Positions 7,151-55,303 are shown, counted from the stretch's first letter. The stretch is DNA of 64,000 bases from Patescibacteria group bacterium (GCA_029210775.1 JARGGI010000001.1:16493-80492); one strand, 5' to 3'. Notes: a model not told the origin generated them from the letters alone. Numbers and translations: made by a program.

Positions 7151-7258
7151 TAATTGTGTTTTTTGTTTTTTCAAAAAGTGCAATTCAATGATTAACTAGC
7201 TGTTAATGGTTGTAATATTATTGATAAATTTATTTTATATAATTTAGTACAAGAATTC

Positions 7259-7376
7259 TCTGGTGATTTTAGCGATGAGGTCACACCTGATCCCATCTCG
7301 AACTCAGAAGTTAAGCTCATTAGCGCCGATGGTACTTGCTCCGTACGGAGTCGGGAGAGTAGGTCGTTGCCGGAGA
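7259..7376 (+). rRNA. rrf: 5S ribosomal RNA
   Basis: TCTGGTGAT...CCCATCTCGAACTCAGAAGTTAAGC...GCCGATGGTA...GAGAGTAGGTCGTTGCCGGAG canonical 5S helices. Confidence 0.9.
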
Positions 7377-11181: not shown

Positions 11182-11355
11182 ATTGTAGATTTTAGTTTTT
11201 TAGGGCTTTAGGTCTTAGAAATATTAAAATATGTTAAATATGTCATTCTAAATTTATTTAAGAATCTTTTGGAAAATGTGTTTTGTCTGTGATTTATTTT
11301 ATAAAACTATAAATAACGAACGAGAAATTTCGATTTTATAATTCTATTAATTAAT

Positions 11356-11772: not shown

Positions 11773-11823
11773 TAAAGATAATAGTCTTGTGAAATAAATT
11801 ACATATTGCTTATGCTTCGAAAG

Positions 11824-11847
11824 ATTCTGAATCAAGTTCAGAATGAC
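11824..11847. repeat. small hairpin of the TGTCAT-terminus repeat superfamily (ATTCTGAA-tcaag-TTCAGAATGACA)
   Basis: 8-bp inverted repeat ending in AGAATGACA; same motif at 20471-20479, 34568-34578, 38315-38341, 38405-38423. Confidence 0.6.
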
Positions 11848-14310: not shown

Positions 14311-14415
14311 TAATATTATTTCATATAAATTTGGTCCTTCTTTAAAGGATAGTCCTTTAGTGTTTTTTTGTTTTATATCACTATATTAACCAGCCTTCCT
14401 TTCACAAAAATCACT
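14311..14415. repeat. X' (14311-14337) and Y' (14354-14415) repeat copies; Y' contains the last 12 codons of leuS
   Basis: see 13019-13112. Confidence 0.8.
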
Positions 14416-20363: not shown

Positions 20364-20479
20364 TGTCATCTTGAATGGAATGTAACGACCGATAGGATTC
20401 TGTGCTTAATATCGTAAATTATATGTGATAGTTTTGAGCAAATAGTTTCGGGATTCTATCACTTCGCTTCAGAATGACA
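20364..20479. repeat. MITE-like element (TGTCAT termini) between tatD and metG
   Basis: TGTCATCTTGAATGG...GGGATTCTATCACTTCGCTTCAGAATGACA; right arm matches arm A consensus TGTCATTSYGARCGAAG..AATCCC. Confidence 0.6.
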
Positions 20480-30924: not shown

Positions 30925-30990
30925 GCTTATCTCTGTCATTGCGAGGAGGTACGACGTGGCAATCCCGCAAATTTGTCATCCGGTCCGAAA
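30925..30990. repeat. solo arm of TGTCATT MITE family
   Basis: TCTCTGTCATTGCGAGGAGGTACGACGTGGCAATCCCG. Confidence 0.7.
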
Positions 30991-31778
30991 GATATATTCT
31001 TCAAGCGGTTGAAGTTATTTAAAATAAATTTAGGATAACTACACCGCTATCCCCATCTAAGAATGAGAAATTAACTTTCATGCTGTTTTCATTATAAATC
31101 ATTTTATAAATATTATCCATAAAAAAATAAGTATTTATTTTGATCAATATATTTTTATTTTGAATTACGAAATGCAATGAAATTAAAATTGACAGACCTG
31201 TGTATAAGCTAACTTTATAAAAGTGACACAAATTTCAGAAAATAAATAATCCTTATTTTAAAAGATAAAACTTGTGGATAACTTTGAATTTGACATGTTC
31301 TTTGAAAGGAAGATAATAGAGACGTGGCTATGTCTTTATAAAAGGCAAAAAGCATTGTATTAACCGCAAGGGGAGGGTCTTGATTTTTATGTAAACAAAG
31401 AAAAGAATCAATTAATTTTTAATAAAAATTTTCCAACAAGGAAAAGAAAAATTGATTCAAATAACCTAATACTTGATTGAAATAGTGCGAAAAGATCAAC
31501 CAAACGAAATTCTTGTTTAGATTTTGGTTGTTTTTTGTACACTAAAATTTCTTTTTACAAATGCTGTTTAATGTTTTGTCACTTTGTTAAAGACGAATAA
31601 AAAAATAAATAAGTTTAATATAAAAAATTAAAGGTCGAAGTTGTTTGTCTAAGTTTTAATAATTTGCTATTATTTTGGATTTAATTTTAAGTATCTGTGA
31701 TAGATTCCAGATCAAGTTCGAAATAATAAAAAAGGGTGAAAAATTTAGACGAGTAACTCTAAAAATTTTAATAACTTT

Positions 31779-31906
31779 GAATTACGAAATGTCTTTCTAA
31801 GTCAAACAAAGAATCCCGAAATTACGCACACAGATCTTAATGAAGGGATTATTATGTGATTTTAATTCTTACAATGACAACAAAATTTTGTATTTTGTAA
31901 TTTAAA
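31779..31906 (+). repeat. intergenic repeat family D, copy 2, about 95 bp upstream of vWA gene
   Basis: see 3334-3465. Confidence 0.7.
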
Positions 31907-33358: not shown

Positions 33359-33449
33359 TTCTGTTTGCTTAAATTTAAAGTGATTATTTTAATTACTTTT
33401 GACTCTGCGTCTTTGAATTAAGGCGCAGGGGACTGAGGTCGTTAAAAGT

Positions 33450-33842
33450 ATATTGTTATTGCGAGCGAAGCGTGGCAATCATGCGACTATGTCTGTCATT
33501 GCGAGCGAAGCGTGGCAATCCCGAAATAAATTCAGAAAGTTATAATATATCGTTTCGTGAATTTAGACTTGAGATTGCTTCGTCGCTATGCTCCTCGCAA
33601 AGACAATGTTATTCCTCTGTCATTGCGAGCGAAGCGTGGCAATCCCGAAATTAGTTTCAGAAAACTGTAATATATCGTTTCGTGAATTTAGACTCGAGAT
33701 TGCTTCGTCGCTATACTCCTCGCAAAGACAAACACAAGAAAAAAAAGTTTTATGTTAATAAACTCGAGATTGCTTCGTCGCTATACTCCTCGCAAAGACA
33801 GAGATAGATTGTCACATCGCTATGCTCCTCGCAACGACAAAC
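33450..33842. repeat. array of about 4 tandem/partial copies of the TGTCATT MITE family (about 110-120 bp units)
   Basis: alternating arms TGTCATTGCGAGCGAAGCGTGGCAATCCCGAAA and GATTGCTTCGTCGCTATRCTCCTCGCAAAGACA separated by a conserved core ...CGTTTCGTGAATTTAGACTYGAG. Confidence 0.85.
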
Positions 33843-34020
33843 ATAGTAAAATTTGAAAAATTTATATAAACAGTATACAATGTATGCAATAAATATTAAC
33901 AAATCAAAAATGGAAAATGAAAATTTAGAAAAAGATGAAAATTTACGAGAAGATTTGACACAAGAAAACGAAACAATTACAAAAAACGAAGAAGTAAAGA
34001 TCGAAGAAAAATCTGAAGGT

Positions 34021-34461
34021 ATGAAAAAAATTCAGAAAAATAAAATGACACCGAAAAAGATTTTGAAAATCGCTGCCCTTTTTATAGCATTCTTTCTGGT
34101 CTGGTTTACAGTTGTGCAATATATCACTGCTGATAAATATGAAGCGGTAGTCAAAGTTATAGAAGAAGGAGGAAAAGTTGGAGTGAATCCAATGACAGAG
34201 CGACTTGATTATGGAGATTTACCAAAAGGAAATGCATCAACAAGATTTATTACAATTGAAAATAGTGGGAGTATGGATATTTTCGTTGTAGTTGTAAAAT
34301 ATGGTGGAATCGCTGAACTAATAAAGATTAACGAAAATAATTTTGTTCTTTCATCGGGAGACAAAAAAAAGCTTGAATTGACACTTAATATGCCGATCAG
34401 TGCGAATAAGAAAGGATATGAAGGAAAAATTGTAATATTTAAACTACCGAAATTGTTTTAA
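34021..34461 (+). CDS. small signal-anchored Ig-like-fold protein (ORF track 33853; likely start Met 34021 after GAAGGT SD)
   Basis: MKKIQKNK..KILKIAALFIAFFLVWF anchor; LDYGDLPKGNASTRFITIENSGSMDIFVVVV Ig-like (DUF1573/ASH-like pattern). Confidence 0.55.
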   Translation: MKKIQKNKMTPKKILKIAALFIAFFLVWFTVVQYITADKYEAVVKVIEEGGKVGVNPMTERLDYGDLPKGNASTRFITIENSGSMDIFVVVVKYGGIAELIKINENNFVLSSGDKKKLELTLNMPISANKKGYEGKIVIFKLPKLF

Positions 34462-34595
34462 ATCCTAATGTTGTTCTAAATTTATTTCTGAATCTATTGA
34501 GTAGTAGAGTTTGTCTATGGTTTATTTCACAATAACAGATGTAATAGTTAGAAGATCCTGAACTAAATTCAGAATGACGATATAAAACGAAAAAA

Positions 34596-35021
34596 ATGAA
34601 CAAAAAAAAGAAATCAATAATTGAATTTATTATATATTTAGTCTTTGTTGGCGCAGTTGCAATTGGAACGCCGAAAGCCTTAGTTTATGCTCTTGGAACT
34701 GACTATCCGATTGCATCCATAACTTCCGGTTCAATGTGGCCAGAATTGAAAAAAAATGATTTGGTACTCATTAAATATGCTGAAAAAAAAAGTCTTGCAA
34801 AAGGAGATATAGTGGTTTTTAAAAATGAAAGAGGTTTTACAATTCATAGAATAGTTGAATTAAACGAAGACACAATTACGACAAAAGGGGATGCAAATAA
34901 TGTTTCTGATTCTCCTGTTGAGTATGAAAAAATTATCGGTAAGACTGTTAATTGGAATAATAAGCCAGTTAGAATTCCATATTTAGGCAGACTGACAATT
35001 TGGGCTTCAAATCGACGATAA
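34596..35021 (+). CDS. signal peptidase I, archaeal/ER type (SipW-like, S26 family)
   Basis: N-terminal TM, SITSGSMWPELKKNDLVLI (SGSMxP box), short 141-aa length typical of SipW/SPC18 type. Confidence 0.75.
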   Translation: MNKKKKSIIEFIIYLVFVGAVAIGTPKALVYALGTDYPIASITSGSMWPELKKNDLVLIKYAEKKSLAKGDIVVFKNERGFTIHRIVELNEDTITTKGDANNVSDSPVEYEKIIGKTVNWNNKPVRIPYLGRLTIWASNRR

Positions 35022-35108
35022 AGCTATATAATTAAAAACTGTATGTATAATTTCTCAATTCATTTTATTCGTTTGATGAATAATATTCATTAGATATAAT
35101 CAAAAAGT

Positions 35109-36539
35109 ATGATCGGAAATTTTAAAAAAATTAGGTTTAAGAGAAGACTTAGAAAACTTCGTTTTATAATTTTTACTTTTTTAAAAAACACTTTAGTGTT
35201 AACCAGCATTGCAGGATTTGTTGTGGCAAGTGTGCCAATATTCAGCGCCTATGAGGCTCATGTCATCAATGTCACAGCCAAAATTGAAAACGATATTCCT
35301 ACCATTGATCCTCCAGGTGGTTATTTCTGTAACGACGGTAGTTTGACAATGAAATTATTCACTTCAATAGTTGGAGCAAATATTATATATACAACTGATG
35401 GAACGAACCCAGACTGTTTTGCACCGAATGGCATAATATACTCAGCGCCATTTCCTTTAACATATAGTGCAACGGTTAAAGCCAGAGCATGTCATGATGA
35501 CAATCAGAGCGTTACTGTGAATAAATATTTTGATGTTTCTTCACAATATTGTGAGGAAAAGAAATATTGTGATGCTCGTTCAATTGGCTATTGGCAAAAT
35601 CATGAAGGTTGTCCAGCGAGCAGTAATTGGTCTGCTGAAATTAATGCTTTATCTTTGGGTGAATTATCAGGAGCATTTGGAACAATTTCAGGATCAGATA
35701 TTTGTTTCTATTTGTCTCCAAAAAATTGTCCTGCTGCAAAAACAATTGAAGGAAAACTTTGTCAAGCAAAAGGAAAAACTCTTGCAAATTTATCAAATAT
35801 TGGATCAAATCATTTAGATCTAAACGCTCTGATTGCAGGATCTGATGATGGAAATAAAGCATTTGATAATTTGGGTTTAAATTCATCTTCAACGGTTAGA
35901 GAAGCTTTGTTTAAAATTGAAAAAATCATCATAGATGTGTCTGCAACAAAAAGAGAATTGACTGATGCAGCATATGTTGCTGAAAGAATTTATGCTTTTT
36001 ATGAAGAAGAAAATGAAAATACACCATGGTGTTTTTATGGAGAAGTTGAGCTTAATCTTCTCACAATTCCTCTTGTCAAAGAACTACCCGCATCTGTGTG
36101 TGGAAATGGAAATTTAGATATTGATATTGGTGAAACTTGTGATGATGGAAACACAATTAGTGAAGATGGTTGCTCTGAAATTTGCCAGATTGAAACACCG
36201 ATTGAAGAATCAAAAGATGAAAAGCCCCCAGAAGCAGAGCTCCCAATTGTTGAGGAAGAACTGATTTCAGAAATTCCAGATGAAGATCCAATTACAGAAG
36301 AATCTCTAATTCAACAATCTGTTGAAGATCCTGTCGTTGAAGAATCTTTTACAGAACCACCTCTAACTGAAGAAACTGACAAAATAGACCCTACTAATGA
36401 AGATTTCACATCAGAACCTCAACAAGAAGATCTTTCTGTTGAAAAGCCGATACAAGAAGATATTTCTACTGAAAAACCCGGCCCTAACGACTCTTCGGTT
36501 GAGTATTCAGAATTGCTGACACCGTCTATAATCTATTAA
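35109..36539 (+). CDS. secreted protein with SipW-cognate-like motif, chitobiase/hexosaminidase C-terminal-like domain, Myxococcus-type Cys-rich repeat and acidic Pro/Glu-rich tail
   Basis: AYEAHVINVTAKIEN; IIYTTDGTNPDC...; CGNGNLDIDIGETCDDGNTISEDGCSEICQIE. Confidence 0.7.
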   Translation: MIGNFKKIRFKRRLRKLRFIIFTFLKNTLVLTSIAGFVVASVPIFSAYEAHVINVTAKIENDIPTIDPPGGYFCNDGSLTMKLFTSIVGANIIYTTDGTNPDCFAPNGIIYSAPFPLTYSATVKARACHDDNQSVTVNKYFDVSSQYCEEKKYCDARSIGYWQNHEGCPASSNWSAEINALSLGELSGAFGTISGSDICFYLSPKNCPAAKTIEGKLCQAKGKTLANLSNIGSNHLDLNALIAGSDDGNKAFDNLGLNSSSTVREALFKIEKIIIDVSATKRELTDAAYVAERIYAFYEEENENTPWCFYGEVELNLLTIPLVKELPASVCGNGNLDIDIGETCDDGNTISEDGCSEICQIETPIEESKDEKPPEAELPIVEEELISEIPDEDPITEESLIQQSVEDPVVEESFTEPPLTEETDKIDPTNEDFTSEPQQEDLSVEKPIQEDISTEKPGPNDSSVEYSELLTPSIIY

Positions 36540-36550
36540 CAAATAAACAA

Positions 36551-36643
36551 TGTCATTTCAGAATTTATTCCAAAGCAACAGCTTTTGAATAGAAATCTGA
36601 GATAGAGCTTACCTTGTTTTATTAAAACTTTTCTGGAATGACA
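36551..36643. repeat. MITE-like element, TGTCATTTCAGAA...TTCTGGAATGACA termini
   Basis: 13-bp terminal inverted repeats with one mismatch. Confidence 0.6.
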
Positions 36644-36673
36644 ACAACAGTGACAATTAATAGAATCTAAGCA

Positions 36674-37879
36674 TTGATTAAATATATGAAATTCAATTTG
36701 AAAAAACTTAAAACGATTGTCACAGTTTCATCGCTTCTGTTTATAAGCGTGTTATTTACTGTGTTTTTTCAAAATAATGTTTCAAAAGCAAATTCAATTT
36801 TAAGTCCTATAATTGTGAATTTATTAAATCTTGAATTTAGCGTAGTATTTCCTGGGGAACAATTACATCAAAACTTTCTTGTTTCCTATTCTGGAGATGG
36901 AAGCGGAATTTATACTATCACTGAGAAATATAAACCTTTACCAACAGCTGAAGTTCCAGTCGGATATGTCGGAAGTATAAGTGATTATTGTCAAGAAAAT
37001 TATGAAGATTATACAAGATGCTATAAAACTCTTTGTCCTTATATGACTGAATATAGTGAAGAAGGAGAGGGAGATCTTATAAATTCAGCATCTGTTGGAC
37101 CAAATGATTCATCTGATGATTGGGTTGTTGCCTTGAGCGTGCCAGCGATTATGGGAAATGTTGCGCAAGATCATACTGGCGGAATCATTACTGAAAACGG
37201 AGCTTATGGATGCGATCTTTCATTTGATGTTGAACGAATATGTGAAAACAAGCCTGTTGATATAGTTTTGATTATGGACAGATCCGTGAGCATGGGTCCC
37301 ACATATGACAACCCTTCAAGATTGTCTCAAGCGAAAACCGCTGCCAATTCATTTTTAGGAAATTTAGGAAGTAATGACCAGTCAGCTTTGGTATCCTATG
37401 CAGGTAGTGCGTCTTTAGATAAGGGATTATCTGCAATTCATATTACCGATCCAGCATCAACTGAAACTGCAGTAAACGCTCTTTCGGCCTCTGGAAGCAC
37501 AAATATTGGTGATGCAATTGCAAAAGGAACCGCAGAATTTAGTTTAGGTAGAGAAAATAATCAAGCCGTAAAAGTAATGATTCTTCTCACGGACGGTAAA
37601 CCAACTTGTCCTGTTATTCATGAGGGATATTCTCAATGTGGATATGTACAAGATCCAGGAGATGTTGATCATGCAGAAAATATGGCGATATTGGTAAAAC
37701 AAGCTGGAATTAAAGTCTTCACAATCGGACTTGGCGATAACGAGAAAATAAACGAAGATATGCTTCAAAATATCGCATCATTGAAAAGTGATGGAGTAAC
37801 TCCTGAATATTATTATGCCCCAAACGGAAGTGATTTGGAAGGGATTTATGATGAGATTTCAGGGGAACTTTGTCAATAG
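36674..37879 (+). CDS. secreted vWA-domain protein (401 aa), paralog of 32000-33358
   Basis: VLIMDRSVSM MIDAS, LLTDGKPT; shared blocks FxxVFPxEQL, DxWVxxLxVPxxxGNxAQD, GCDL with protein 32000. Confidence 0.8.
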   Translation: MIKYMKFNLKKLKTIVTVSSLLFISVLFTVFFQNNVSKANSILSPIIVNLLNLEFSVVFPGEQLHQNFLVSYSGDGSGIYTITEKYKPLPTAEVPVGYVGSISDYCQENYEDYTRCYKTLCPYMTEYSEEGEGDLINSASVGPNDSSDDWVVALSVPAIMGNVAQDHTGGIITENGAYGCDLSFDVERICENKPVDIVLIMDRSVSMGPTYDNPSRLSQAKTAANSFLGNLGSNDQSALVSYAGSASLDKGLSAIHITDPASTETAVNALSASGSTNIGDAIAKGTAEFSLGRENNQAVKVMILLTDGKPTCPVIHEGYSQCGYVQDPGDVDHAENMAILVKQAGIKVFTIGLGDNEKINEDMLQNIASLKSDGVTPEYYYAPNGSDLEGIYDEISGELCQ

Positions 37880-37999
37880 TTATGAGCTTAAAGTAAGCGC
37901 CTTAATTAGAATATAATTTCCAATTAAAGCGTTTGCTCTAATCGGCAAACAAGAGGGAAGCCGTAGCGAATGACACCAGTCCTAATACGACTTCTCTCA

Positions 38000-38230
38000 A
38001 ACTACTTGAAAAAATATAAATAAAAATACAAAAAATACAAAAAAAAATTACCCAACTTATAAAAATACATAAAAAAAGAAACACAAAATATAACAAAAAA
38101 AACAAAAAAAGATTAACATAAATATAAAAAAGCGAAAAACAAAAAAGTCAAAAACACACAAAAATAACACTCAAGAAAAACGCGCGAAATAAAAGAAAAA
38201 CGCACAAACAAAGCCTATATAAACAATGTT
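38000..38230 (+). repeat. about 230-bp strand-asymmetric A+C-rich low-complexity tract (almost no G/T on + strand)
   Basis: AAAAATACAAAAAATACAAAAAAAAATTACCCAAC...AAAACGCGCGAAATAAAAGAAAAACGCACAAACAAAGCC. Confidence 0.8.
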
Positions 38231-38298
38231 TTTTAAAAAATACAATGATTTAGGTGGTTTTTGATTTGGTCTATTTACACATTTAAAACAGTGTAAAG

Positions 38299-38423
38299 TG
38301 TCATTCTTTTATAATGTCATTCTGAATTTATTTCAGAATCAATCGTCCCTTACACTTTGTTCTCAAGATAAATCACAGACAAACCAATAATCTAAAAGAT
38401 CCTGAAACAAGTTCAGGATGACA
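38299..38423. repeat. MITE-like element of the TGTCAT superfamily immediately upstream of the 932-aa gene
   Basis: TGTCATTCTTTTATAATGTCATTCTGAATTTATTTCAGAATCA...GATCCTGAAACAAGTTCAGGATGACA. Confidence 0.6.
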
Positions 38424-38474
38424 CTTAAAAACAATAAAATTATTTTTATATATATTATTAATTAATTTACACTT

Positions 38475-41273
38475 ATGAAGAAAATTAGCAAACAACCAAA
38501 AAATGGCACTCAAAAGAAAATAGCTTCATTTGGTATAATTTCCTTGTTGTTAAATGTTGTTATGACAAGTGTGTTACTTGCGCCTTCAGAAGATGTTCTC
38601 GGACAAGGAGTTGAACAAGTATGTGAAAACAAGCCTGACTCATATGTTTCAGAAGATGATGATGAATATAAAGGCAATGTTTTGATAAACGAATTGATGT
38701 GGATGGGAACTTCAGTTTCTACGGCAGATGAATGGATTGAATTAAGAAATATGACACCAATTGAAATTAATTTCAATAATACTCCTTGGTCAATATATAA
38801 AAATGATTCACGTATGCTTGTAATTAGCAGCGGAATACTTAAAGGGTGTGGTTATTTTCTTGTTTCTAACAATAGTGAAAATCATAAGTTTACTAACGGA
38901 GAATCTGTCCTAAATATCACTCCTGATTTCATCGACAAATCAGTTTCTCTTTCTGATTCTTCGGTTCAATATAAACTTTATGATACGGAAAATAGCGAAG
39001 GAAATCTTATTGATACAGCTGATGATGGTTCAGGCAAAGTTTTAGCTGGAGAATACACACCTGAAAACAATTGGAAATCAATGTCAAGAAGAACTGCCCA
39101 AGACGGAACTTTAGCAGAAAATTGGTGCACCGCTCAAACCAGAGTAAATTGGGACGCTAAAACCCCAGAATTTGGAACACCAGGCGCTGAGAATATCTGT
39201 AACAGAATTTCCGGTTACAAATTTAACGATGTAAATGGTAATGGCACTTGGGATAAAAACGAGTCTGATTCTGAACCTGGTCTTAACGAATGGATAATAA
39301 ATCTTTATGGTAATTTAATTACCATTACATCGACAGTAACTGATGTCTTGGGATATTATGAATTCAAAAATTTGTTAGCAGGAACATATTTCGTCAAAGA
39401 AGAAATTAAAAATAAATGGCAACAAACAACTCCAGTAGATCCAGATTATTTTGAAATTGATTTGACAGATAATCCAATATCTGACGATATAAACTTTGGA
39501 AATCAGTTAATATCAGTTTGTGGAAATAAAACAATTGAAGATGGAGAAATGTGTGACGATGGAAATATAGAAAGTGGAGACGGATGTTCCAGTGAATGTC
39601 AAATTGAAAATACAGCTTCAATTTCTGGATGTAAATATGATGATGAGAACAATAATTCAAAAGTTGATGAAAAAGAAGGAAAGTTAAGCGGTTGGGAAGT
39701 TCAACTGATTGGCTGTCCATATTCTTCAGAAGGAGATTTCCTACCAAAAACTAGTATAAATGAAAATCCACAAGAAGGCGAAGTCGGATATTGCTCGGTA
39801 ATCAAAACTACAACCACCACTACTGACGGTTGCTATAGTTTTGAAGGTCTTTCCGCTGGAGATTATGGAGTTAATGAAGTAGATCAAGAAAACTGGACAC
39901 AGACTTTTCCAACAAATGGAATGTTCTATTCTTTTAATCTGACAGATGGTGAGGCAAAGACAGATGTTGACTTTTTGAACCACGAAGAGACTACACCTCC
40001 TGAATGTTCAGGAGAAGAAACACAAAATTGTTATGGTGGTCCTGGAGGAACGGCAGGTGTTGGGATTTGCCAAGCAGGTATCCAAACTTGTGTTGATGGC
40101 AATTGGAGTCAATGCAGTGGTCAAGTTACTCCTCGAAGTGAAATTTGTGGAAATGGTATTGACGAGGATTGTAATGGTTCTGATGCAGGCTGTGGAGGTT
40201 CTGGTCCAATTCCGAAACCAACAATCATAATCACGAATGAAAAAGTTTCCTATCTTGGAAGTGGAAGCGCATTAGTAACATGGACAACTAATATTGAAAC
40301 AACCAGGCAAGTTGCCTATGGCGATAATTCAATCACCCTTCTTGGCGCTGTTCCAAAATATGGATATGACTCAGTTAATGAGGAGTCAGATAATATGACA
40401 AAAAATCACAGCGTCACAATTGATGAACTGACCGATGGAATTCCATACTATTTTAGACCAATTGCTGATCGACCTGGATCAACGGGGGAAAAGGTTGGAA
40501 TTGAAGTTTATTATCAACCCGGAGAAGTGAAAGGAGTAACCGACCCAGTTGTGCCAGAAGTTGAAGAATGTAATTATCTTTTTGAATATATCAAGTTTGG
40601 AAAAGATAATAATCCTGTTGAAGTTCAAAAACTTGAATCATTCTTGAATATATTTGAAAGTGAAAGTCTTGCTATAAACGGGATCTATGAACAAGTTGAT
40701 TTTGATGCTGTTTCAAGATTTCAGGAAAAATATTTTGAAAAAGTTCTTTCTCCTTGGAACCATGACAGCGCAACGGGATATGTCTATATCACAACAAAAA
40801 AAAGAATTAATGAAATTTATTGTGAAAGAGAATTTCCTTTAACAAAAGAACAAGCGGAAGAAGTTGCGCGATATGACACACTATTTGGCATAAGAGCACC
40901 AAGCGCTGAACAGCCAGCAGAGAGCTTTGATATAGAAACTGGTGCGGGTGCGACTACTACTACTCCAGAAAGTGGAATTGAGAGCACAGAAGGCGAAAAT
41001 GAAGGCACTGAAGGCCCACAGATTGAACTTGGGAACGAAAAGGAAAGCGGAGAAGTGGCTGGAACAACTGATGAAGTAAATGCAGATAATGGTGAAGGCG
41101 AGGTCGAAGAAATCAACAGTGAAACTGAGGAAGAAGTTGTTTATGCTGATAGTGGATATTCAAATTTATATTTCTGGATACCAGTTATATTACTACTTAT
41201 AATTATTGCTATTATTTATTATGTTACAAAGATGAAAAAAGGTGGCAATGATGCAGGATCGTCAACAGAATAA
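38475..41273 (+). CDS. large surface adhesin-like protein (932 aa): signal peptide, lamin-tail-like domain, two SdrD-B/CNA-B-like domains, Myxococcus Cys-rich repeat, Cys-rich module, FN3-like domain, acidic region, C-terminal TM anchor
   Basis: GNVLINELMW...EWIELRN; ISGYKFNDVNGNGTWD; CGNKTIEDGEMCDDGNIESGDGCSSECQIE; C-term IPVILLLIIIAIIYYVTKMKKGG. Confidence 0.75.
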   Translation: MKKISKQPKNGTQKKIASFGIISLLLNVVMTSVLLAPSEDVLGQGVEQVCENKPDSYVSEDDDEYKGNVLINELMWMGTSVSTADEWIELRNMTPIEINFNNTPWSIYKNDSRMLVISSGILKGCGYFLVSNNSENHKFTNGESVLNITPDFIDKSVSLSDSSVQYKLYDTENSEGNLIDTADDGSGKVLAGEYTPENNWKSMSRRTAQDGTLAENWCTAQTRVNWDAKTPEFGTPGAENICNRISGYKFNDVNGNGTWDKNESDSEPGLNEWIINLYGNLITITSTVTDVLGYYEFKNLLAGTYFVKEEIKNKWQQTTPVDPDYFEIDLTDNPISDDINFGNQLISVCGNKTIEDGEMCDDGNIESGDGCSSECQIENTASISGCKYDDENNNSKVDEKEGKLSGWEVQLIGCPYSSEGDFLPKTSINENPQEGEVGYCSVIKTTTTTTDGCYSFEGLSAGDYGVNEVDQENWTQTFPTNGMFYSFNLTDGEAKTDVDFLNHEETTPPECSGEETQNCYGGPGGTAGVGICQAGIQTCVDGNWSQCSGQVTPRSEICGNGIDEDCNGSDAGCGGSGPIPKPTIIITNEKVSYLGSGSALVTWTTNIETTRQVAYGDNSITLLGAVPKYGYDSVNEESDNMTKNHSVTIDELTDGIPYYFRPIADRPGSTGEKVGIEVYYQPGEVKGVTDPVVPEVEECNYLFEYIKFGKDNNPVEVQKLESFLNIFESESLAINGIYEQVDFDAVSRFQEKYFEKVLSPWNHDSATGYVYITTKKRINEIYCEREFPLTKEQAEEVARYDTLFGIRAPSAEQPAESFDIETGAGATTTTPESGIESTEGENEGTEGPQIELGNEKESGEVAGTTDEVNADNGEGEVEEINSETEEEVVYADSGYSNLYFWIPVILLLIIIAIIYYVTKMKKGGNDAGSSTE

Positions 41274-41290
41274 AATAGTTATATATTTGC

Positions 41291-41319
41291 AAAAACCCGG
41301 TTGACTTGATCGGGTTTTT
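41291..41319 (+). terminator. rho-independent terminator of adhesin gene
   Basis: AAAAACCCG-gttgacttgat-CGGGTTTTT. Confidence 0.7.
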
Positions 41320-41329
41320 GTATTTGTTT

Positions 41330-41702
41330 TCTTGCGATGACATAGGTTTGTCTTTGCGAGGAGGAACTCGGGATTGCCACACTTCGCTCGCAAAGACAGA
41401 TAAAAAAACTATACGAAATTAAATTTGGGATTGCCGCTCTTCGCTCGCAATGACAGAGGAATAACATTGTCATTACGTGGAGGAACTCGGGATTGCCACG
41501 CTTCGCTCGCAAAGACAGAGGAATAACATTGTCATTGCGAGGAGGAACGACGAAGCAATCTTGAGTCTAAATTCACGATACGATATATTACAGTTTTTTG
41601 AATTTAAATTTGGGATTGCCACACTTTGTTCACAAAGACAGATAAAAAAACTATACGAAATTAAATTTGGGATTGCCACACTTTCCTCGCAATGGCAAGA
41701 GC
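41330..41702. repeat. second array of TGTCATT MITE family, opposite orientation to the 33450-33842 array
   Basis: 41530-41640 is the reverse complement (about 85% identical) of the unit at 33600-33730; additional short-form units TGTCTTTGCGAGGAGGAACTCGGGATTGCCACACTTCGCTCGCAAAGACA. Confidence 0.85.
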
Positions 41703-41821
41703 AACGGTCAAAATAACAAAAAAAGGGAAATAATATTCTAAACGATATTTCTTTTTAAAAAAATTAACAAAAACGGAAAAATAGAGTAAAATTAAATTAG
41801 ATTAATTTAAATCTTTTAAAT

Positions 41822-42382
41822 ATGAAATTAAAAAACATTGAGAATCCAACAAGACTGATATATCATAACCCAGTTTCACTTGTCACTTCAAATCACAAAG
41901 AAATAAAAAATGTTTTTACAGTCTCGTGGCTTTGTAGTGTTTCAAATCATCCACCGATGGTGATGATTAGCGTTGATAAAAAAAGATTTTCTTTCAATCT
42001 AATCAAACAAAGCGGTAAATTTGTGATAAACATTCCCAATATAAAGATGATTAAAGATGTCATATATTGCGGAAATGTTTCAAGAAAAAATAAAGATAAA
42101 TTTGAAGAGAGAAATTTAATGTATTCTGTTTCTGACAAAGGAGGGATTATTCTTAATGATACAATTGCTTATGTTGAATGTGAAGTGAAAAATGAATTTG
42201 ATGTTGGTGATCACATTTTGTTTATCGGAGAAATTATAACCTCAGGAGCTGAAGAAGAAGCCTATTCCAATGGCAGTTGGAATTTGAAAAATGAAAATGC
42301 AAAAACATTACATTTTTTAGGTGAGAATGGAAGATATATAACAATTGATGAAATTAATTTTAAAAAAAATAATAATTTTTAA
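41822..42382 (+). CDS. flavin reductase-like (FMN-binding split-barrel) domain protein
   Basis: Block order and length typical of HpaC-like flavin reductases. Confidence 0.6.
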   Translation: MKLKNIENPTRLIYHNPVSLVTSNHKEIKNVFTVSWLCSVSNHPPMVMISVDKKRFSFNLIKQSGKFVINIPNIKMIKDVIYCGNVSRKNKDKFEERNLMYSVSDKGGIILNDTIAYVECEVKNEFDVGDHILFIGEIITSGAEEEAYSNGSWNLKNENAKTLHFLGENGRYITIDEINFKKNNNF

Positions 42383-42551
42383 CTATAAAATGCAATAAGA
42401 ATGTCATTTTGAGCTTGCCCGTCCTGTTAGGCAGGCTTGTTGAAAAATGGTAAGCATGCTAAATTTATTATTGTTAACCAATCCAGTCTGCTGTCAGGCT
42501 GGCTTCACTAAACAAACTTTCTGTTTTGTAATTCAAAATTAAATAAATTTT

Positions 42552-43694
42552 ATGAATTGTAAAAGATCATTATATTTACATAAAAAATCTGGTGGAAAAT
42601 TAGAAATTAAAAGTAAATTTGAAATTAAAAGTAAAGAAGATTTAAGCATGGCCTATACTCCTTGTGTTGCTGAAATTTCTTCCCTAATTGCAAAAGACAA
42701 AAAACTTGCAAGTGACTACACAATCAAGAAAAATACTATTGCAGTTGTTTCAGATGGAAGCGCTGTTTTGGGTTTGGGTGATATAGGTGCAGAAGCTGCA
42801 ATCCCCGTTATGGAAGGTAAAGCGATTTTATTTAAAGAGCTTGCAAATGTTGATGCTTTTCCGATTTGTCTTGCAACACAAGATCCAGAAGAAATCATTC
42901 AAACCGTAAAAAACATCGCTCCAGTTTTTGGCGGAATTAATCTTGAAGATATTTCTGCTCCAAAATGTTTTTATATTGAAAAACAATTGCAAAACATTGG
43001 CATTCCCGTTATGCATGATGATCAACACGGAACAGCAATTGTTGTCATCGCTGCTCTCCTCAATTCCGCAAAAATAATAAAAAAAGACTTGTGTTCTATG
43101 AAAATTGTCATCGTTGGGGCTGGAGCTGCTGGAACTGCTATAACTAAAATGATTGCTCTTGAATTAAATCCAAAGGATATTCTTGTGTGTGATAGTAAAG
43201 GAATAATAAGCAAAGAGAGAAAGGATCTAAATCCGATGAAAAAAAAGCTTCTTGAAATCACTAACAAAAATAATACTAAAGGAAAAATTGAAGATGCTCT
43301 TTTGGATGCGGATGTTTTTATTGGTGTTTCAAAAGGTGGCCTAATAAATACTCAAATGATCAAAACAATGAATTCTGATGCAATTATTTTTGCAATGGCA
43401 AATCCAATTCCAGAAATTATGCCAGATGAAGCAAAAAGAGGAGGAGCGTCCATAGTTGGAACAGGGAGAAGTGATTTTCCAAATCAGATTAATAATGTTT
43501 TAGCCTTTCCGGGAATTTTTCGAGGACTTCTTGATAGTAAAGCAACAAAAGTAACAGACGAAATCAAAATTGAAGCCGCAAGAGCGATCGCAAATTGTGT
43601 CTTAAATCCAACAGTCAATAACATTCTTCCAAATCCACTTGATAAAAAAGTGTCAAAAGCTATAGCCAAAAGCATAAAACATTTACGAAAATAA
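42552..43694 (+). CDS. NAD(P)-dependent malic enzyme (short form)
   Basis: GGKLEIKSK...EDLSMAYTPCVAE; GLGDIGAEAAIPVMEGKAILFKELANVDAFPICL; VIVGAGAAGTAI Rossmann. Confidence 0.85.
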   Translation: MNCKRSLYLHKKSGGKLEIKSKFEIKSKEDLSMAYTPCVAEISSLIAKDKKLASDYTIKKNTIAVVSDGSAVLGLGDIGAEAAIPVMEGKAILFKELANVDAFPICLATQDPEEIIQTVKNIAPVFGGINLEDISAPKCFYIEKQLQNIGIPVMHDDQHGTAIVVIAALLNSAKIIKKDLCSMKIVIVGAGAAGTAITKMIALELNPKDILVCDSKGIISKERKDLNPMKKKLLEITNKNNTKGKIEDALLDADVFIGVSKGGLINTQMIKTMNSDAIIFAMANPIPEIMPDEAKRGGASIVGTGRSDFPNQINNVLAFPGIFRGLLDSKATKVTDEIKIEAARAIANCVLNPTVNNILPNPLDKKVSKAIAKSIKHLRK

Positions 43695-52449: not shown

Positions 52450-52875
52450 ATGGCAAAAAAAATTCAAAAATTAGTTAAACTTCAAATACCAGCAGGAAAA
52501 GCAAATCCAGCTCCACCAATTGGACCTGCACTTGGTCAAGCTGGAATCAATATCCAAGAGTTCTGCACGAGATTTAACAATGAGTCAAAGGATCTTGGAA
52601 ATGACATTATTCCAGTTGAAATTTCTGTATATGAGGATAAATCCTATACATTTATAATGAAAACTCCTCCAGCATCAGCGCTTTTAAAAAAGGCTGCTGG
52701 TGTCCAAAAAGGATCAAAAGAACCACAAAAAGACAAGGTTGGGAAAGTAACAAAAGCACAACTCCAAGAAATTGCAGAATTGAAAATGAAAGATTTAAAT
52801 GCAAATACAGTTGAAGGTGCGATGAACATTATCGCAGGAACTGCAAGAAATATGGGAATTAAAATTGAAGAATAA
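52450..52875 (+). CDS. rplK: 50S ribosomal protein L11
   Basis: [23 protein letters not shown]. Confidence 0.95.
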
Positions 52876-52902
52876 TATATTTATTTTAAAAACATCTAAA
52901 CT

Positions 52903-53370
52903 ATGGAAGAAAAAAATATAATATCAAACAATTCAAAAAAACATAAAATTATTCTTTTGATTTTAGTTTTGCTTTCTTTATTTATTATTACTTTCGTCTT
53001 AAACTCTAACACGGCTTCCAAAGATGATTATGATAGTATTGATAAGGTTGAAAAATCAGATGAGAAAAAATTTTCTGTGACTTTAAGGATTGATAATGGA
53101 AAGGGAGATGAAAAAAAGGAATATGAGCTAAATGAAATTTCAAAGAAAACAACTGTATTTGACATTTTAAACAAAAATGTCACAATAAAATATAATAATG
53201 ATTATGATTACGGAGTTTTTATAGAAAGTATAGATGGAATAAATAACGGAGATGAAGGAAAATATTGGCAATATTATATCAATAATAAGCTTGGGGATGT
53301 TGCAGCTGACAAAAAAACGATGCAGGAAGGCGATATAGTTGAGTGGAGATTTGAAGAAGATTCGTTTTAG
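52903..53370 (+). CDS. hypothetical signal-anchored protein (155 aa) inserted between rplK and rplA
   Basis: ORF with N-terminal TM. Confidence 0.5.
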   Translation: MEEKNIISNNSKKHKIILLILVLLSLFIITFVLNSNTASKDDYDSIDKVEKSDEKKFSVTLRIDNGKGDEKKEYELNEISKKTTVFDILNKNVTIKYNNDYDYGVFIESIDGINNGDEGKYWQYYINNKLGDVAADKKTMQEGDIVEWRFEEDSF

Positions 53371-53390
53371 TTATATTTGTAATTATTGAA

Positions 53391-53494
53391 TGTCATTACG
53401 AAGGAGTTGCAACAACTGAAGCAATCCCAGAACTATGTGCAGAGAGTTTAATCACGAAATTACTTCATCGCCCTGTAGGACTCTTCGCAATAAC
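53391..53494. repeat. MITE (TGTCATT family) copy between rplK and rplA region
   Basis: TGTCATTACGAAGGAGTTGCAACAACTGAAGCAATCCC...AATCACGAAATTAC...CTCTTCGCAATAACAG, same orientation as 41530-41640 unit. Confidence 0.75.
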
Positions 53495-53511
53495 AGTAAA
53501 GCTCAAAAAAT

Positions 53512-54072
53512 ATGAACAAATTAAAATTTATTTCAGCAATAATACTAATTCTTATTGGAATAGCGGGAAGATTTTTCTTGGTAAGTTATGCTGGAATTCC
53601 TAATTTTGAGATAATAACAGCAATAGCTTTGATTTCAGGAATATATTTAGGAGGCGTTTATGCCATTGTCATTCCTCTTTCAATAATTTTTTTGAGCGAT
53701 TTGGTAATTGGAAATACATATATTTTTATTTTTACATGGACAGCGTTTGCGTTGATTGGATTGTTTGGATTTTTGTTTAAAAACAAACTGAAAAAGAAAC
53801 TTCTTTTTAATTCTATTTTAATAGGAATTACTTCTTCTGTATTTTTTTATCTTTATACTAATTTTGGTTGGTGGCTTATGTCTGGAATGTATGAATATAG
53901 CTTATCAGGACTTATACGATGTTATTGGATGGCAATTTTGTTTTTTAGAAATAATTTAGTCGGAAATTTGATTTTTGTACCGTTAGGAATTTATACTGCA
54001 TCAAAAGTATTTAACTATTCCCAAAAAAGATGCTATTATTTTTCTGCCAACAAAAATGAGAGGACTTTATAA
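53512..54072 (+). CDS. hypothetical polytopic membrane protein (186 aa)
   Basis: ORF, 5-6 hydrophobic helices. Confidence 0.5.
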   Translation: MNKLKFISAIILILIGIAGRFFLVSYAGIPNFEIITAIALISGIYLGGVYAIVIPLSIIFLSDLVIGNTYIFIFTWTAFALIGLFGFLFKNKLKKKLLFNSILIGITSSVFFYLYTNFGWWLMSGMYEYSLSGLIRCYWMAILFFRNNLVGNLIFVPLGIYTASKVFNYSQKRCYYFSANKNERTL

Positions 54073-54553
54073 AATTGAAGATATAATAAGAAGATATAAA
54101 AATCATCCAGATGAGTTAAACTTGATGATTGATGAAAAAAAAATAGGAATAATAAACAAAAACAGAACTAAGAGAGAGAAAGAATTGCTGAAATGTGACT
54201 TAAAAATACTTAAGAAAGCTCTTAAAGAAATAAATAAATTGATAATCAGAGAAATAATTTCAAAAGTCACGCCAGCTATCATAAGTTTATTTTTTATTGT
54301 TAATGAAATTCTTTATATTAAAAACAATATCAATCTTATTCAACAAGATGTTTATTTGCACAATGTTCTTTCAGTTATTGTTTTACTAAAAATGGTTATT
54401 ATTTTTTTTGTTTTACCTTTATTTTTATTTGAAAAATCAGTTAATCATTTTCTCAGATTAGACTCGCAATTTTTTCCAATTAGTTTTTTTTATAATTCTC
54501 TATATTTTTTAATATTTCTTATAGTTACAATCAAAGTTTTTGAATATATCTAA
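54056..54553 (+). CDS. hypothetical membrane protein (165 aa)
   Basis: ORF overlapping previous by 17 nt; C-terminal TM helices. Confidence 0.4.
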   Translation: MRGLYKIEDIIRRYKNHPDELNLMIDEKKIGIINKNRTKREKELLKCDLKILKKALKEINKLIIREIISKVTPAIISLFFIVNEILYIKNNINLIQQDVYLHNVLSVIVLLKMVIIFFVLPLFLFEKSVNHFLRLDSQFFPISFFYNSLYFLIFLIVTIKVFEYI

Positions 54554-54622
54554 ATTAATAATTTAACAACTAACCGTGGGAGCGTTAAAATTTAATGCGC
54601 TTGAACCACAAAGGAAAAAACA

Positions 54623-55303
54623 ATGAAAAGATCAAAACGTTATAAAGACGCAAAGAAAAAAATAGACAGAGTTAAAGTCTATAAAGTTAGTGAAGCAATT
54701 AAGTTGCTAAGCGAAAATGCAAACGCAAAATTTGATGAAAGCGTTGAAATTCATATCAAAACAAATATCAACCCCAAACAATCTGATCAACAAATTCGAG
54801 GGTCCATCGTGCTTCCTCATGGAACGGGAAAAGAGAAAAAAATTGCAGTTTTTGCAGAAGGGGACGCAGCAAAAGAAGCAAAAGATGCTGGTGCTGACAT
54901 TATCGGAGGCGAAGAGCTTATTGCAAAAATAAAACAAACAAAACAAGCTGACTTTGATATCGCAGTTGCAACTCCAGATATGATGCGAAAGCTTGCAATT
55001 ATTGCGAAAATTTTAGGTCCAAAAGGTATTATGCCTTCACCAAAAACAGAAACTGTTACGACTGATATCAAAAAAACTGTTGAACAACTGAAGAAAGGTA
55101 AATTAAACTTCAAAAATGATGACTCTGGAAATATTCACCAACTAATTGGAAAGGTGTCTTTTGGAGAAGAAAAATTATTAGAAAATGCCAATGCATTTAT
55201 CCAAACTATGAAAGATGTAAAACCAAGCGGAGCAAAAGGTGATTATATAAAAAATATTGTAATCACTTCCACTATGGGAGTTGGTATTAAAATTAATTTG
55301 TAA
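54623..55303 (+). CDS. rplA: 50S ribosomal protein L1
   Basis: KFDESVEIHIKTNINPKQSDQQIRGSIVLPHGTGK. Confidence 0.95.
   Translation: MKRSKRYKDAKKKIDRVKVYKVSEAIKLLSENANAKFDESVEIHIKTNINPKQSDQQIRGSIVLPHGTGKEKKIAVFAEGDAAKEAKDAGADIIGGEELIAKIKQTKQADFDIAVATPDMMRKLAIIAKILGPKGIMPSPKTETVTTDIKKTVEQLKKGKLNFKNDDSGNIHQLIGKVSFGEEKLLENANAFIQTMKDVKPSGAKGDYIKNIVITSTMGVGIKINL

Follow-up and report, generated by a model that had tools for sequence, protein, structure and literature searches.

We examined two repeat arrays in a 64,000-nt stretch of DNA (hereafter the window) from a Patescibacteria metagenome-assembled genome (MAG; GCA_029210775.1, JARGGI010000001.1:16493-80492) of low GC content (about 30%). The arrays, a left cluster at 33453-33839 and a right cluster at 41331-41697, lie on either side of a group of surface-protein genes. 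They are very probably clusters of hairpin repeats of the CGTC/TGTC-tagged superfamily of repetitive extragenic palindromes (REPs), the class of the Neisseria repeats dRS3 and NTS, arranged much like bacterial interspersed mosaic elements (BIMEs) or the NIMEs of Neisseria, and, as far as the evidence goes, neither mark an island border nor serve an inversion. A first-pass annotation had located both arrays correctly, and its statement that they share one repeat family in opposite polarity also holds. It had, however, read them as miniature inverted-repeat transposable elements (MITEs) bracketing a 7.4-kb adhesin segment that RecA might invert, or whose ends might delimit a variable surface-antigen island; these interpretations fared less well, as detailed below. 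The arrays are real and far beyond chance, yet ordinary for their repeat class, and it is the presence of NTS-like repeats in genomes of the candidate phyla radiation (CPR) that is of greater note.

All elements are built from modules of one general plan, namely a (C/T)GTC tag, a stem that begins with AT (here ATTGC...GCAAT), a variable inner hairpin and a C-rich tail. Written out, the module of the two arrays reads 5'-(C/T)GTC, ATTGC, GAG, variable inner hairpin, CG(A/T)(A/G), GCAAT, C(C)(A/G). Two arm types are found, A (TGTCATTGCGAGCGAAGCGTGGCAATCCCGA) and B (TGTC(A/T)TTGCGAGGAG..GCGACGAAGCAATCT(C/T)GAG). A full unit measures 112-113 nt and consists of an A arm, a spacer of ~45 nt termed L, and a B arm on the other strand, such that the GTC tags point outward. 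Most modules are paired tag-outward and, with a spacer of 45-57 nt, form a dimer of ~95-115 nt, and it is this dimer that had been labelled a MITE. The dimer ends resemble 12-nt terminal inverted repeats (TGTCATTGCGAG / CTCGCAATGACA; TGTCATTGCGAG ... CTCGCAAAGACA).

The variation among modules is compensatory. The stems ATTGC, ATTCT, ATTTC, ATCTC, ATCCT, ATTCC and ATCGC are each paired with their exact complement, and the inner hairpins vary yet stay complementary (GCC-GAA-GGC, GGC-AAA-GCC, GCTGC-GAA-GCAGC). The best-conserved arms read GTC-AT...AT-C (ATTGC/GCAAT, ATTCTGAA/TTCAGAAT and others), and some decayed arms are substituted at the AT positions of the stem, for example GTCTTTGCGAG and GTTATTGCGAG. 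The scan itself demanded the 5' AT; the independent test is the complementary AT on the 3' side. Two architectures occur. In the ATTGC subfamily the outer stem has 5 bp, and a GA-rich internal loop leads to an inner hairpin of variable length (7-20 nt separate the conserved halves); the ATTCTGAA subfamily has an 8-bp stem and a loop of 4-5 nt. Folded as single-stranded DNA (ssDNA), the dimers of the left cluster each form one long hairpin (z = -3.5 and -3.2 against shuffles); the copy within leuS, described below, reaches z = -3.7, and the long dimer of the right cluster has decayed (z = -1.3).

Modules were tallied in the window (n=23), in relatives (n=85), in a genome sample (n=170) and in viral contigs (n=365). 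The base preceding GTC is T in 19/23 window modules and 70/85 modules of relatives; in the genome sample it is C in 93/170 and T in 68/170, and T or C account for 95% overall. C is the first tail base in about 80% of modules overall (14/23 in the window, 67/85 in relatives and 305/365 in viral contigs). The tail CCA or CCAG is common in the genome sample (GCAATC-CAG in 47/170), and the window tails are CCC or CTT. Adjacent modules are tag-outward in 32 of the 40 pairs of the genome sample, with spacers of 14-53 nt. Other trinucleotide tags were uninformative as a control, as A/T-rich cores give many chance hairpins at 30% GC.

The same module recurs, nearly unchanged, far outside this genome. 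The core GTCATTGCGAG-N5-20-GCAATC has at least 120 matches in the genome collection, whose titles name groups from well over ten phyla. The hosts among the matches listed include Bradyrhizobium (many), Sphingomonas, Sphingobium, Novosphingobium, Micavibrio, Rickettsiales, Chloroflexota, Bacteroidota, Cyanobacteria, Nitrospirota, Planctomycetota, Oscillospiraceae, Patescibacteria and Saccharibacteria. At least 120 further matches lie in viral contigs, some of which may be host fragments. Bradyrhizobium (L172) carries the motif CGTCATTGCGAGCGAAGCGAAGCAATCCAG, Sphingomonas (L219) a near-identical variant of it and Micavibrio (L220) a related copy; compared with the A arm of the window, TGTCATTGCGAGCGAAGCGTGGCAATCCCGA, those of Bradyrhizobium and Sphingomonas differ at about four positions. 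These three genera are named as CGTC hosts in the survey that defined the superfamily (Di Nocera, De Gregorio & Rocco 2013, BMC Genomics 14:522, PMC3733652).

A full-text literature search for the strings GTCATTGCGAG and CTCGCAATGAC returned only unrelated primers, and nothing relevant on miniature inverted repeats of Patescibacteria.

Within the window, a 23-nt core of the arrays, ATTGCGAGCGAAGCGTGGCAATC, has seven copies with no more than three mismatches, all of them in the two arrays (expected 0.00 in 100 shuffles). A second arm type, for which shuffles likewise predict no match, has three copies in the left array and one within leuS in a scan of the window. The left spacer (33359-33852; 494 nt, 39% GC) and the right spacer (41274-41821; 548 nt, 35% GC) are both filled by this one repeat family and are much richer in GC than the other spacers of the window (6% to 35%).

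The left cluster opens with a degenerate A-type module on the plus strand (33453-33481), in which the tag is GTT in place of GTC. Full tag-outward dimer 1 (33494-33605, plus) follows, with the A arm TGTCATTGCGAGCGAAGCGTGGCAATCCCGA, the ~45-nt L spacer and the opposite-strand B arm. It is joined by the 14-nt linker S (ATGTTATTCCTC; 33606-33617, plus), found in reverse complement twice in the right cluster, and once in L001, the closest strain, to full dimer 2 (33618-33730, plus; 93% identity to dimer 1 at a period of 125 nt). After 32 nt come two solo B-type modules on the minus strand (33764-33800 and 33803-33839), the second of which is degenerate. Read along the minus strand, the right cluster runs from a terminal solo A module (41669-41697, minus) through a 27-nt linker into its only long dimer (41531-41640, minus), which is 81-84% identical to the left dimers in opposite polarity and has lost its fold. 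An S linker and a short dimer without L spacer (41469-41517, minus) come next, then S again, a solo A module (41427-41455, minus), the 27-nt linker, a further short dimer (41349-41399, plus) in which the 5' half of a B arm is fused to an A arm without the L spacer, and a remnant (41331-41345, plus). The short dimers measure ~50 nt. This module-by-module layout roughly bears out the earlier unit counts of about four on the left and about five on the right. Two open reading frames (ORFs) traverse the right cluster, at 41279-41512 (minus strand, 77 aa) and 41477-41716 (plus strand, 79 aa); they are artefacts of a GC-rich, stop-poor repeat and would yield spurious 'hypothetical proteins'.

The clusters grew at least partly by local duplication of composite blocks, in the manner of BIMEs, as shown by the 125-nt period of the left cluster, a duplicated 91-nt block in the right one, and the conserved S and 27-nt linkers. 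The 91-nt block consists of an A module, the 27-nt linker and another A module, and occurs at 41365-41455 and 41607-41697 (89% identity, offset 242 nt), so that the terminal solo A module forms part of it.

The inverted relation between the two clusters is what had suggested a RecA-mediated flip of the 7.4-kb surface-protein segment, with heterogeneity in the population as its outcome. The clusters do share inverted matches of 58-102 nt at 85-97% identity, where chance would yield none, namely 33609-33710 with 41548-41649 (102 nt, 85%), 33591-33648 with 41487-41544 (58 nt, 97%) and 33527-33585 with 41548-41606 (59 nt, 88%). The longest exact inverted run, 33602-33634 with 41439-41471, is 33 nt, and the remaining runs are 20-26 nt. 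A run of 33 nt is close to the minimum reported for RecA-dependent recombination in E. coli. The homology as a whole is short, interrupted and partly decayed. Each dimer is palindromic, and inverted matches are therefore expected between any pair of clusters of this family, regardless of how they are oriented. Polarity shows only in the asymmetric parts, which are the 14-nt S linker, the 27-nt linker and the L spacer. The two clusters do have opposite polarity, an outcome with a 50% chance if orientation were random, and it is incidental.

Nor would a flip act as a switch. A promoter-like site (TTGAAA-17 nt-TACAAT, 33853-33881, plus strand; a consensus match only) lies directly 3' of the left cluster and upstream of the Ig-like gene, and an intrinsic-terminator-like hairpin with T run (41288-41322, plus strand) follows the adhesin gene, with the right cluster beginning 9 nt further on. 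Both lie inside the segment, and inversion would therefore not switch expression. Pfam found no invertase or recombinase encoded in the 64-kb window. The orientation of the segment relative to its flanks is the same in every relative in which it could be read, and its GC skew has the same sign as that of the flanks. Taken together, we regard inversion as highly improbable.

The relatives allow the gene order to be compared. L134/L002 is scaffold_1 of ZHAN22-2 (831 kb, 'Candidatus Parcubacteria'), with ~76% nucleotide identity to the window in aligned genes; L138 is a Patescibacteria contig with the orthologous gene cluster that covers the left flank, and L006 covers the right side only. The closest strain, L001 (92% nucleotide identity over 7.8 kb), begins at window position 42321, and the arrays lie outside its contig. 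The genes enclosed in the window (33853-41273, plus strand) encode an Ig/ASH-like protein of 202 aa, an S24/S26 (SipW-like) peptidase of 141 aa, an Fn3_assoc/DUF4215 protein of 476 aa, a vWA protein of 401 aa and an SdrD_B/SpaA/LTD adhesin of 932 aa, in agreement with the earlier description of an Ig-like protein, a SipW-like peptidase, a Cys-repeat protein, a vWA protein and a 932-aa adhesin. Pfam, which was run on 48 selected window ORFs of at least 90 aa each, placed the genes that it annotated among housekeeping or surface-protein types.

In L134/L002 the order is CAP (minus), further genes, Ig-like, SipW, 491-aa, vWA, 117-aa and 1367-aa adhesin genes, malic enzyme and xseA, with gene order and orientation as in the window relative to both flanks. 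L138 carries M16 (minus), CAP, vWA, Ig-like, SipW and Fn3_assoc genes and further genes, so that the first three enclosed genes are conserved. L006 has the SipW-like peptidase, further genes, a 1376-aa adhesin and malic enzyme, again oriented as in the window. The opposite orientation was thus found in none of the related genomes, be it at both flanks (L134/L002), on the left (L138) or on the right (L006). A metagenome scan with the 401-aa vWA protein returned relatives at 40-51% identity only, and no close strain was among its results; four vWA-relative loci that were scanned (L127, L128, L129, L133) lack the repeat.

The same comparison bears on the proposal that the arrays delimit a surface-antigen island, either variable or gained by horizontal transfer, which we consider extremely improbable. 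The genes are of the surface or adhesin type, the repeat density is locally high, and a flavin reductase gene beside the right array is absent from that place in two relatives, all of which count in favour of an island. However, L134/L002 and L138 retain the synteny of the cluster, and this extends to the vWA gene left of the left array. This vWA gene is conserved with the Ig-like gene in relatives, and the left array therefore lies inside a CAP-vWA-Ig-SipW cluster and not at its edge. The composition is native: the enclosed genes have a GC content at third codon positions (GC3) of 0.19-0.23, their codon-usage distances are 0.07-0.16 and their GC skew is positive. None of these values departs from the range of the flanking genes or, for GC3 and codon distance, from that of the window as a whole. 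Where the first-pass annotation had looked to GC skew and codon usage for a foreign or inverted segment, the enclosed genes match their flanks and the skew is not reversed. Neither an integrase nor a tRNA gene is present at the borders.

The flavin reductase gene (41822-42382) has the right cluster on one side and, directly 3' of it, a degenerate module (42403-42452, plus strand). In L134/L002 and L006 the gene is missing from the interval that separates the adhesin gene from malic enzyme, which suggests that it was gained or lost within a repeat-filled spacer.

What differs between relatives is the repeats themselves. The spacer of the left array is short and repeat-free in relatives, at 137 nt between the vWA and Ig-like genes in L138 and 150 nt in L134. 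The adhesin-malic enzyme spacer is long in three lineages and holds different subfamilies, with ATTTC/ATCTC dimers in L134 and ATTCT/ATCCT modules in L006; it is a recurrent landing or expansion site. L001 carries a B-S-A fragment of the ATTGC family at a non-orthologous site, beside remnants of insertion sequences (ISs). Its collinearity with the window stops inside corA (window position 50105), and the region after the break (L001 7776-9218) holds an IS256-like transposase gene, the B-S-A repeat fragment and an rve-like gene fragment before the contig ends.

The family is also dispersed within the window, where it and its sister subfamilies occupy at least 12 places besides the two clusters. 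A scan for 'GTCAT + stem >=5 bp + C' gave 14 hits in the window against 0-2 in shuffles. The ATTGC type is found at four sites, i.e. both clusters, 17547-17636 and 30933-30968, and sister subfamilies of the same layout, with stems such as ATTCTGAA/TTCAGAAT, ATCCTGAA/TTCAGGAT, ATTAC/... and ATTTC/..., at no fewer than nine further spacers, three of which lie within the supposedly enclosed segment. Nine tag-outward dimers start at 17547, 20365, 33494, 33618, 34466, 36552, 38316, 41531 and 53392. As a family, the repeats thus stand at many intergenic sites without any enclosing structure, an arrangement that the first-pass annotation had listed among the findings that would refute its proposal. 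Its list of copies was incomplete, since the leuS copy and the sister copies inside the bracketed segment had been overlooked; the solo arm that it gave at 30925-30990 does exist, at 30933-30968. Its remark on a hotspot of repeat accumulation is supported by our count: the region 30.8-41.8 kb holds about 2 modules per kb, the remaining window about 0.2.

The individual copies are as follows. The solo module at 30933-30968 (plus strand; CTGTCATTGCGAGGAGGTACGACGTGGCAATCCCGC) lies in the 1.2-kb spacer from the CAP-domain gene to the first vWA gene. Within the enclosed segment, all listed on the plus strand, are a sister dimer with ATTCTGAA/TTCAGAAT-type stems (34466-34590), another with GTCATTTCAGAA...TCTGGAATGAC (36552-36645) and a third with GTCATTCTGAATTTATTTCAGAATC ... 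GATCCTGAAACAAGTTCAGGATGAC (38316-38422) upstream of the adhesin gene. Elsewhere, sister dimers occupy the TatD-MetRS spacer (20365-20478, plus) and a spacer within the L11-L1 region (53392-53494, plus; GTCATTACGAAGG...GCAATCCCAG ... TTCGCAATAAC), and two tag-outward singlets (11242-11266, plus; 11823-11847, minus) flank an ORF of 138 aa. An ATTGC-family tag-outward dimer (17547-17636, minus strand) lies in frame in leuS and encodes VIVRSKATKQSSQIQVSPINSELLHSACND just before IKVFTTRPDTLFG.

The leuS copy shows that the family also enters genes. The gene (14373-18437, minus strand) encodes a 1354-aa mosaic leucyl-tRNA synthetase (LeuRS), in which the REP dimer is translated as 30 aa (VIVRSKATKQSSQIQVSPINSELLHSACND) at a position where Thermus LeuRS has 5 residues, before the editing domain. 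In relatives, the same loop is filled with REP-encoded peptides of other sequence in P0174, P0177, P0179 and P0181, with a low-complexity insert of another kind in P0173, P0175 and P0188, and with nothing in P0176 and P0197. The loop is thus a recurrent insertion site that REP hairpins have colonised repeatedly. Since the inserts of this loop differ among relatives and a 92%-identical strain has a copy at a non-orthologous site, the elements are mobile or turn over between lineages. In addition, a ATTGCGAG-type module lies within xseA, the gene for the large subunit of exonuclease VII, of the 831-kb relative (L002 12419-12450), which echoes the bias of intragenic REPs for repair genes reported earlier (PMC3733652).

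The LeuRS is mosaic in other respects. Its catalytic and anticodon-binding parts are separated by an inserted NUDIX domain and a Ham1/ITPase domain that is complete (E = 1.8e-56), at residues 468-559 and 1004-1188. The fusion of nucleotide house-cleaning domains into an aminoacyl-tRNA synthetase is unusual. PF00293 (NUDIX) is found in several LeuRS homologues of Patescibacteria as well.

The anatomy and distribution of the modules also speak to the label that the elements had been given. As classical MITEs, they would be non-autonomous derivatives of a DDE-type IS, mobilised in trans via terminal inverted repeats, and the 95-115-nt dimers with their 12-nt ends (TGTCATTGCGAG / CTCGCAATGACA) do have that appearance. 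There is a disrupted rve-type transposase gene at 59.9-61.3 kb, and the L001 copy lies 73 nt downstream of the IS256-like transposase gene. However, no target-site duplication was seen on inspection of the nine tag-outward dimers, only a frequent T...A, and no parent IS with matching ends was found in the window; the ends of the rve-type gene and of the IS256-like gene in L001 do not match, and the L001 copy is a tag-inward array fragment and not an IS end. Single modules, short dimers and fixed-linker arrays are typical of REP/BIME-type repeats and not of MITEs, and a module nearly unchanged across groups from well over ten phyla (among the matches listed) also speaks against a MITE. The covarying stems point to recognition of a hairpin, not of a duplex end. 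Hence a MITE origin is very unlikely, and REP-type hairpin repeats fit better.

Could the hairpins work at the RNA level, by terminating or attenuating transcription of the flanking genes or by stabilising their mRNA? REPs elsewhere lie mostly downstream of ORFs, and many are probably transcribed (PMC3733652). In the window, sister copies sit between co-directional genes of the cluster, and the module at 38399-38419 (minus strand) scores as terminator-like. Against such a role, a canonical terminator precedes the right cluster, the promoter-like site is found downstream of the left one, both module orientations are present at each site, and no Rfam family was found on the arrays at the gathering score or with an E-value up to 1. 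The nuclease SsnA of Neisseria, which recognises repeats of this class, does not act on RNA (PMC11893778). We therefore hold function at the RNA level to be unlikely.

Two further candidates were rejected. A small self-cleaving ribozyme was considered for the sequence GUC followed by GAG-hairpin-CGAA, but there is no CUGAUGA core, modules occur on both strands and Rfam gave no hit. A CRISPR-like or tandem-repeat array is incompatible with the irregular spacing and alternating unit orientation.

Other loci of the window are of interest in their own right. Its rRNA operon (233-7375) has a 16S-23S spacer of 2.4 kb (1701-4089) with tRNA-Ile, tRNA-Ala and a 227-aa ORF (2507-3190) that bears a mechanosensitive-channel helix motif. 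The 23S match spans 3059 nt against a 2925-position model, which suggests insertions. The L11 and L1 genes (52450-55303) are parted by DUF4430, DUF6580 and a 165-aa ORF together with the REP dimer at 53392-53494. The disrupted transposase gene (59858-61259) gives a faint rve_3 match and has an internal stop; a MITE-like element of another kind, which has the ends TTGAATTACGAAAT / ATTTCGTAATTCAA and an internal GTCACCCTGAG...hairpin, splits it at ~60160-60290. The end word of this other element recurs in three spacers (31140-31172, 31755-31789 and 42524-42558).

To account for the REP-like clusters, we propose the following mechanism. The elements would act as ssDNA hairpins that are propagated or recognised by a hairpin-specific ssDNA enzyme, most plausibly a small Ssn-type GIY-YIG nuclease encoded elsewhere, by analogy with NTS and SsnA. 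They would enter spacers at low frequency and now and then insert in frame where a protein loop tolerates them. In favoured spacers they would grow into clusters, partly through tandem duplication of module-linker-module blocks. Here, two spacers of a conserved surface-protein cluster would have been occupied in this way, one from the first vWA gene to the Ig-like gene and the other after the adhesin terminator.

The analogy rests on recent work in Neisseria, where NTS (CGTCATTCCCGCGMAVGCGGGAATCYRG) is bound as ssDNA by SsnA, a 94-aa GIY-YIG nuclease (Chenal et al. 2025, Nat Commun 16:2388, PMC11893778). SsnA cuts strand-specifically a few nucleotides upstream of the tag; cleavage hinges mainly on the three bases before the palindrome, and binding on the C after it. 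NTS cluster around key genes, SsnA lowers transformation by NTS-bearing DNA, and Ssn genes, which encode single-domain GIY-YIG proteins (cd10448), are typically flanked by the motif across phyla (PMC11893778).

A jackhmmer search for Ssn-like GIY-YIG proteins over 260 sequences (the window and 259 loci) gave four hits, none of them in Patescibacteria. Among the matches listed, small GIY-YIG genes share stretches with ATTGCGAG-type motifs in 4 of 240 motif loci (L009, L211, L226 and L233). The small GIY-YIG protein of L211 (6533-6934; e.g. YYVYILTNKHCTVLYTGVTSDLIRRVYEHKN...) is encoded by a gene with motif copies on both sides. The stretches that combine GIY-YIG with ATTGCGAG-type motifs come from an Oscillospiraceae MAG, a Planctomycetota MAG, a Chryseobacterium MAG and a viral contig, consistent with an association of Ssn genes and motif.

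In the window itself, the layout of 11242-11847, with an ORF between two tag-outward singlets, is that described for NTS-ssnA-NTS. The ORF (11356-11772, 138 aa) encodes a coiled coil with a CxxC...CxxC zinc ribbon and matches no Pfam family. It was considered as the cognate nuclease and rejected, as it has no recognisable match to GIY-YIG or any other nuclease.

Several results weigh against the interpretation of the arrays as REP clusters served by such an enzyme. According to Pfam, the 64-kb window encodes no GIY-YIG or Y1/HUH gene and no intact DDE gene, and jackhmmer detected nothing homologous to the L211 GIY-YIG protein, whether in the window or across ~200 kb of Patescibacteria loci. 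The published degenerate pattern of Ssn-related motifs (SRMs), HGTCWYN(0-2)YYVSBRHN(0-5)WNVSBRGN(0-2)RNCYNB, has no match in the window, L001, L134 or L006; compared with NTS, the window copies have shorter stems and longer loops, which is why they miss it. A purely neutral model leaves the roughly tenfold local enrichment of modules near surface-protein genes unexplained, and rare RecA-dependent inversion may occur.

The enrichment raises the question of function. Long tolerant spacers and self-seeding duplication would produce a concentration of modules, which may thus be neutral. Alternatively, by analogy with Neisseria, the concentration might be functional and modulate recombination, a doubtful prospect though one to be kept in mind. 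In the fuller form of this idea, which is compatible with the REP-cluster interpretation and which we rate as a tentative minority view, the modules would be NTS-like sites, i.e. targets of an Ssn-type nuclease that shape the recombination of incoming DNA at the surface-protein cluster. The modules match the NTS architecture (CGTCATTCCCGCGMAVGCGGGAATCYRG) in the tag, the AT-initiated stem and the C right after the stem, and these are the positions that matter most for cleavage and binding by SsnA in Neisseria (PMC11893778). L138, which has the orthologous gene cluster, bears near-canonical copies: the SRM pattern has two matches in it (TGTCATTCCCGCGAAGGCGGGAATCCAG; shuffle mean 0.04), at 8375-8402 and 15004-15031, which read TGTCATTCCCG(C/T)GAAG(G/A)CGGGAATCCAG and are almost identical to Neisseria NTS/dRS3. 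The small GIY-YIG genes beside the ATTGCGAG-type motif in 4/240 loci, on both sides in L211, and the ~10-fold denser modules around surface-protein genes than in the remaining window point the same way. On the other side stand the missing Ssn homologue in the window and the relatives' loci and the failure of the SRM pattern on every window copy. The enrichment comes from a single region of a single genome, and natural transformation of the organism is assumed.

The most specific version, which we put forward as a rather doubtful speculation drawn from the Neisseria system, is that a GIY-YIG Ssn-type nuclease would cut incoming ssDNA beside YGTC clusters and so tune recombination of the surface locus with the DNA of relatives or hosts. 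If true, it would extend the NTS/SsnA mechanism of Neisseria to ultra-small episymbiotic bacteria, and it would explain why a module is conserved near-unchanged across well over ten phyla despite very different base composition. CPR bacteria are thought to depend on DNA uptake.

These results have several implications. The CGTC/NTS-type REP hairpins have been known mainly from Proteobacteria; a reduced genome of the Patescibacteria here holds them in abundance, and in it they fill nearly every spacer of a conserved surface-protein cluster. Ssn nucleases were tied to this class of repeats only in 2025, and CPR genomes therefore offer a simple test of repeat-nuclease pairing. For annotation, the inverted arrays described here should not be recorded as a switch or an island border, and the clusters explain assembly breaks and spurious small ORFs in such MAGs.

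Among known systems, the CGTC REPs are the closest. Their tag is CGTC, or TGTC in many repeats, their stems have complementary A and T at positions 1-2, and they end in a short tail, mostly CCA (PMC3733652). The tag, the AT start of the stem and the C-first tail are all present in the window modules, of which the tag is almost always TGTC and the tail CCC or CTT in place of CCA. CGTC REPs of the families CGTC-1 to CGTC-4 have an 8-9-bp stem and a 4-5-nt loop, with other loop lengths noted (PMC3733652). The ATTCTGAA subfamily conforms to this, whereas in the ATTGC subfamily of the window the outer stem has only ~5 bp and leads via an internal loop to a variable inner hairpin. CGTC REPs are further described as forming one predominant kind of dimer, with spacers of 20-100 bp that are often conserved (PMC3733652). 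Dimers are also a feature of the window, where the type is tag-outward; the 'HH' type of that paper may have the same polarity. Large clusters are known in Neisseria (dRS3) and Wolbachia, no dedicated transposase is known, and in-frame dimers of 20-30 codons occur in genes that include tRNA synthetases and repair genes (PMC3733652). In both the CGTC REPs and the window, singlets, dimers and clusters coexist and the repeats are mostly intergenic, with occasional in-frame dimers. The host differs: a Patescibacteria (CPR) genome of ~30% GC belongs to a phylum then uncovered.

The E. coli REPs and BIMEs and the Pseudomonas REPINs resemble the window family in their short imperfect palindromes with a conserved unpaired tetranucleotide, and in inverted doublets that can fold into one long hairpin. 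BIMEs share with it mosaic clusters, a small set of fixed linkers (here S, L and the 27-nt linker) and growth by local duplication. The tag, however, is YGTC here and GTAG there, and no RAYT (Y1/HUH) was seen in the window; REPs and REPINs are essentially extragenic, whereas the window family is also found in frame inside genes. In this last respect it resembles the Rickettsia palindromic elements (RPEs), whose in-frame insertions are in surface loops of essential proteins; the genes entered by the present family are leuS and, perhaps also in frame, xseA in a relative. The CGTC superfamily takes in RPE-4 and RPE-6 alongside Neisseria dRS3 (PMC3733652). RPE-1 is longer (~100-150 nt) and unrelated in sequence, and the RPE hosts are obligate intracellular alphaproteobacteria.

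The Neisseria NIMEs, units flanked by dRS3, likewise combine arrays of dRS3-type hairpins with unit sequences beside surface-protein genes. The role proposed for NIMEs is to provide homology for recombination, which comes closest to the idea of the first-pass annotation, with the difference that it concerns incoming DNA and not inversion. NTS and the SRM repeats share with the window modules the oriented hairpin, the conserved GTC upstream and the C right after the palindrome. In Neisseria, hundreds of NTS copies lie around particular genes (surface or virulence), and the modules of the window are clustered in the same manner.

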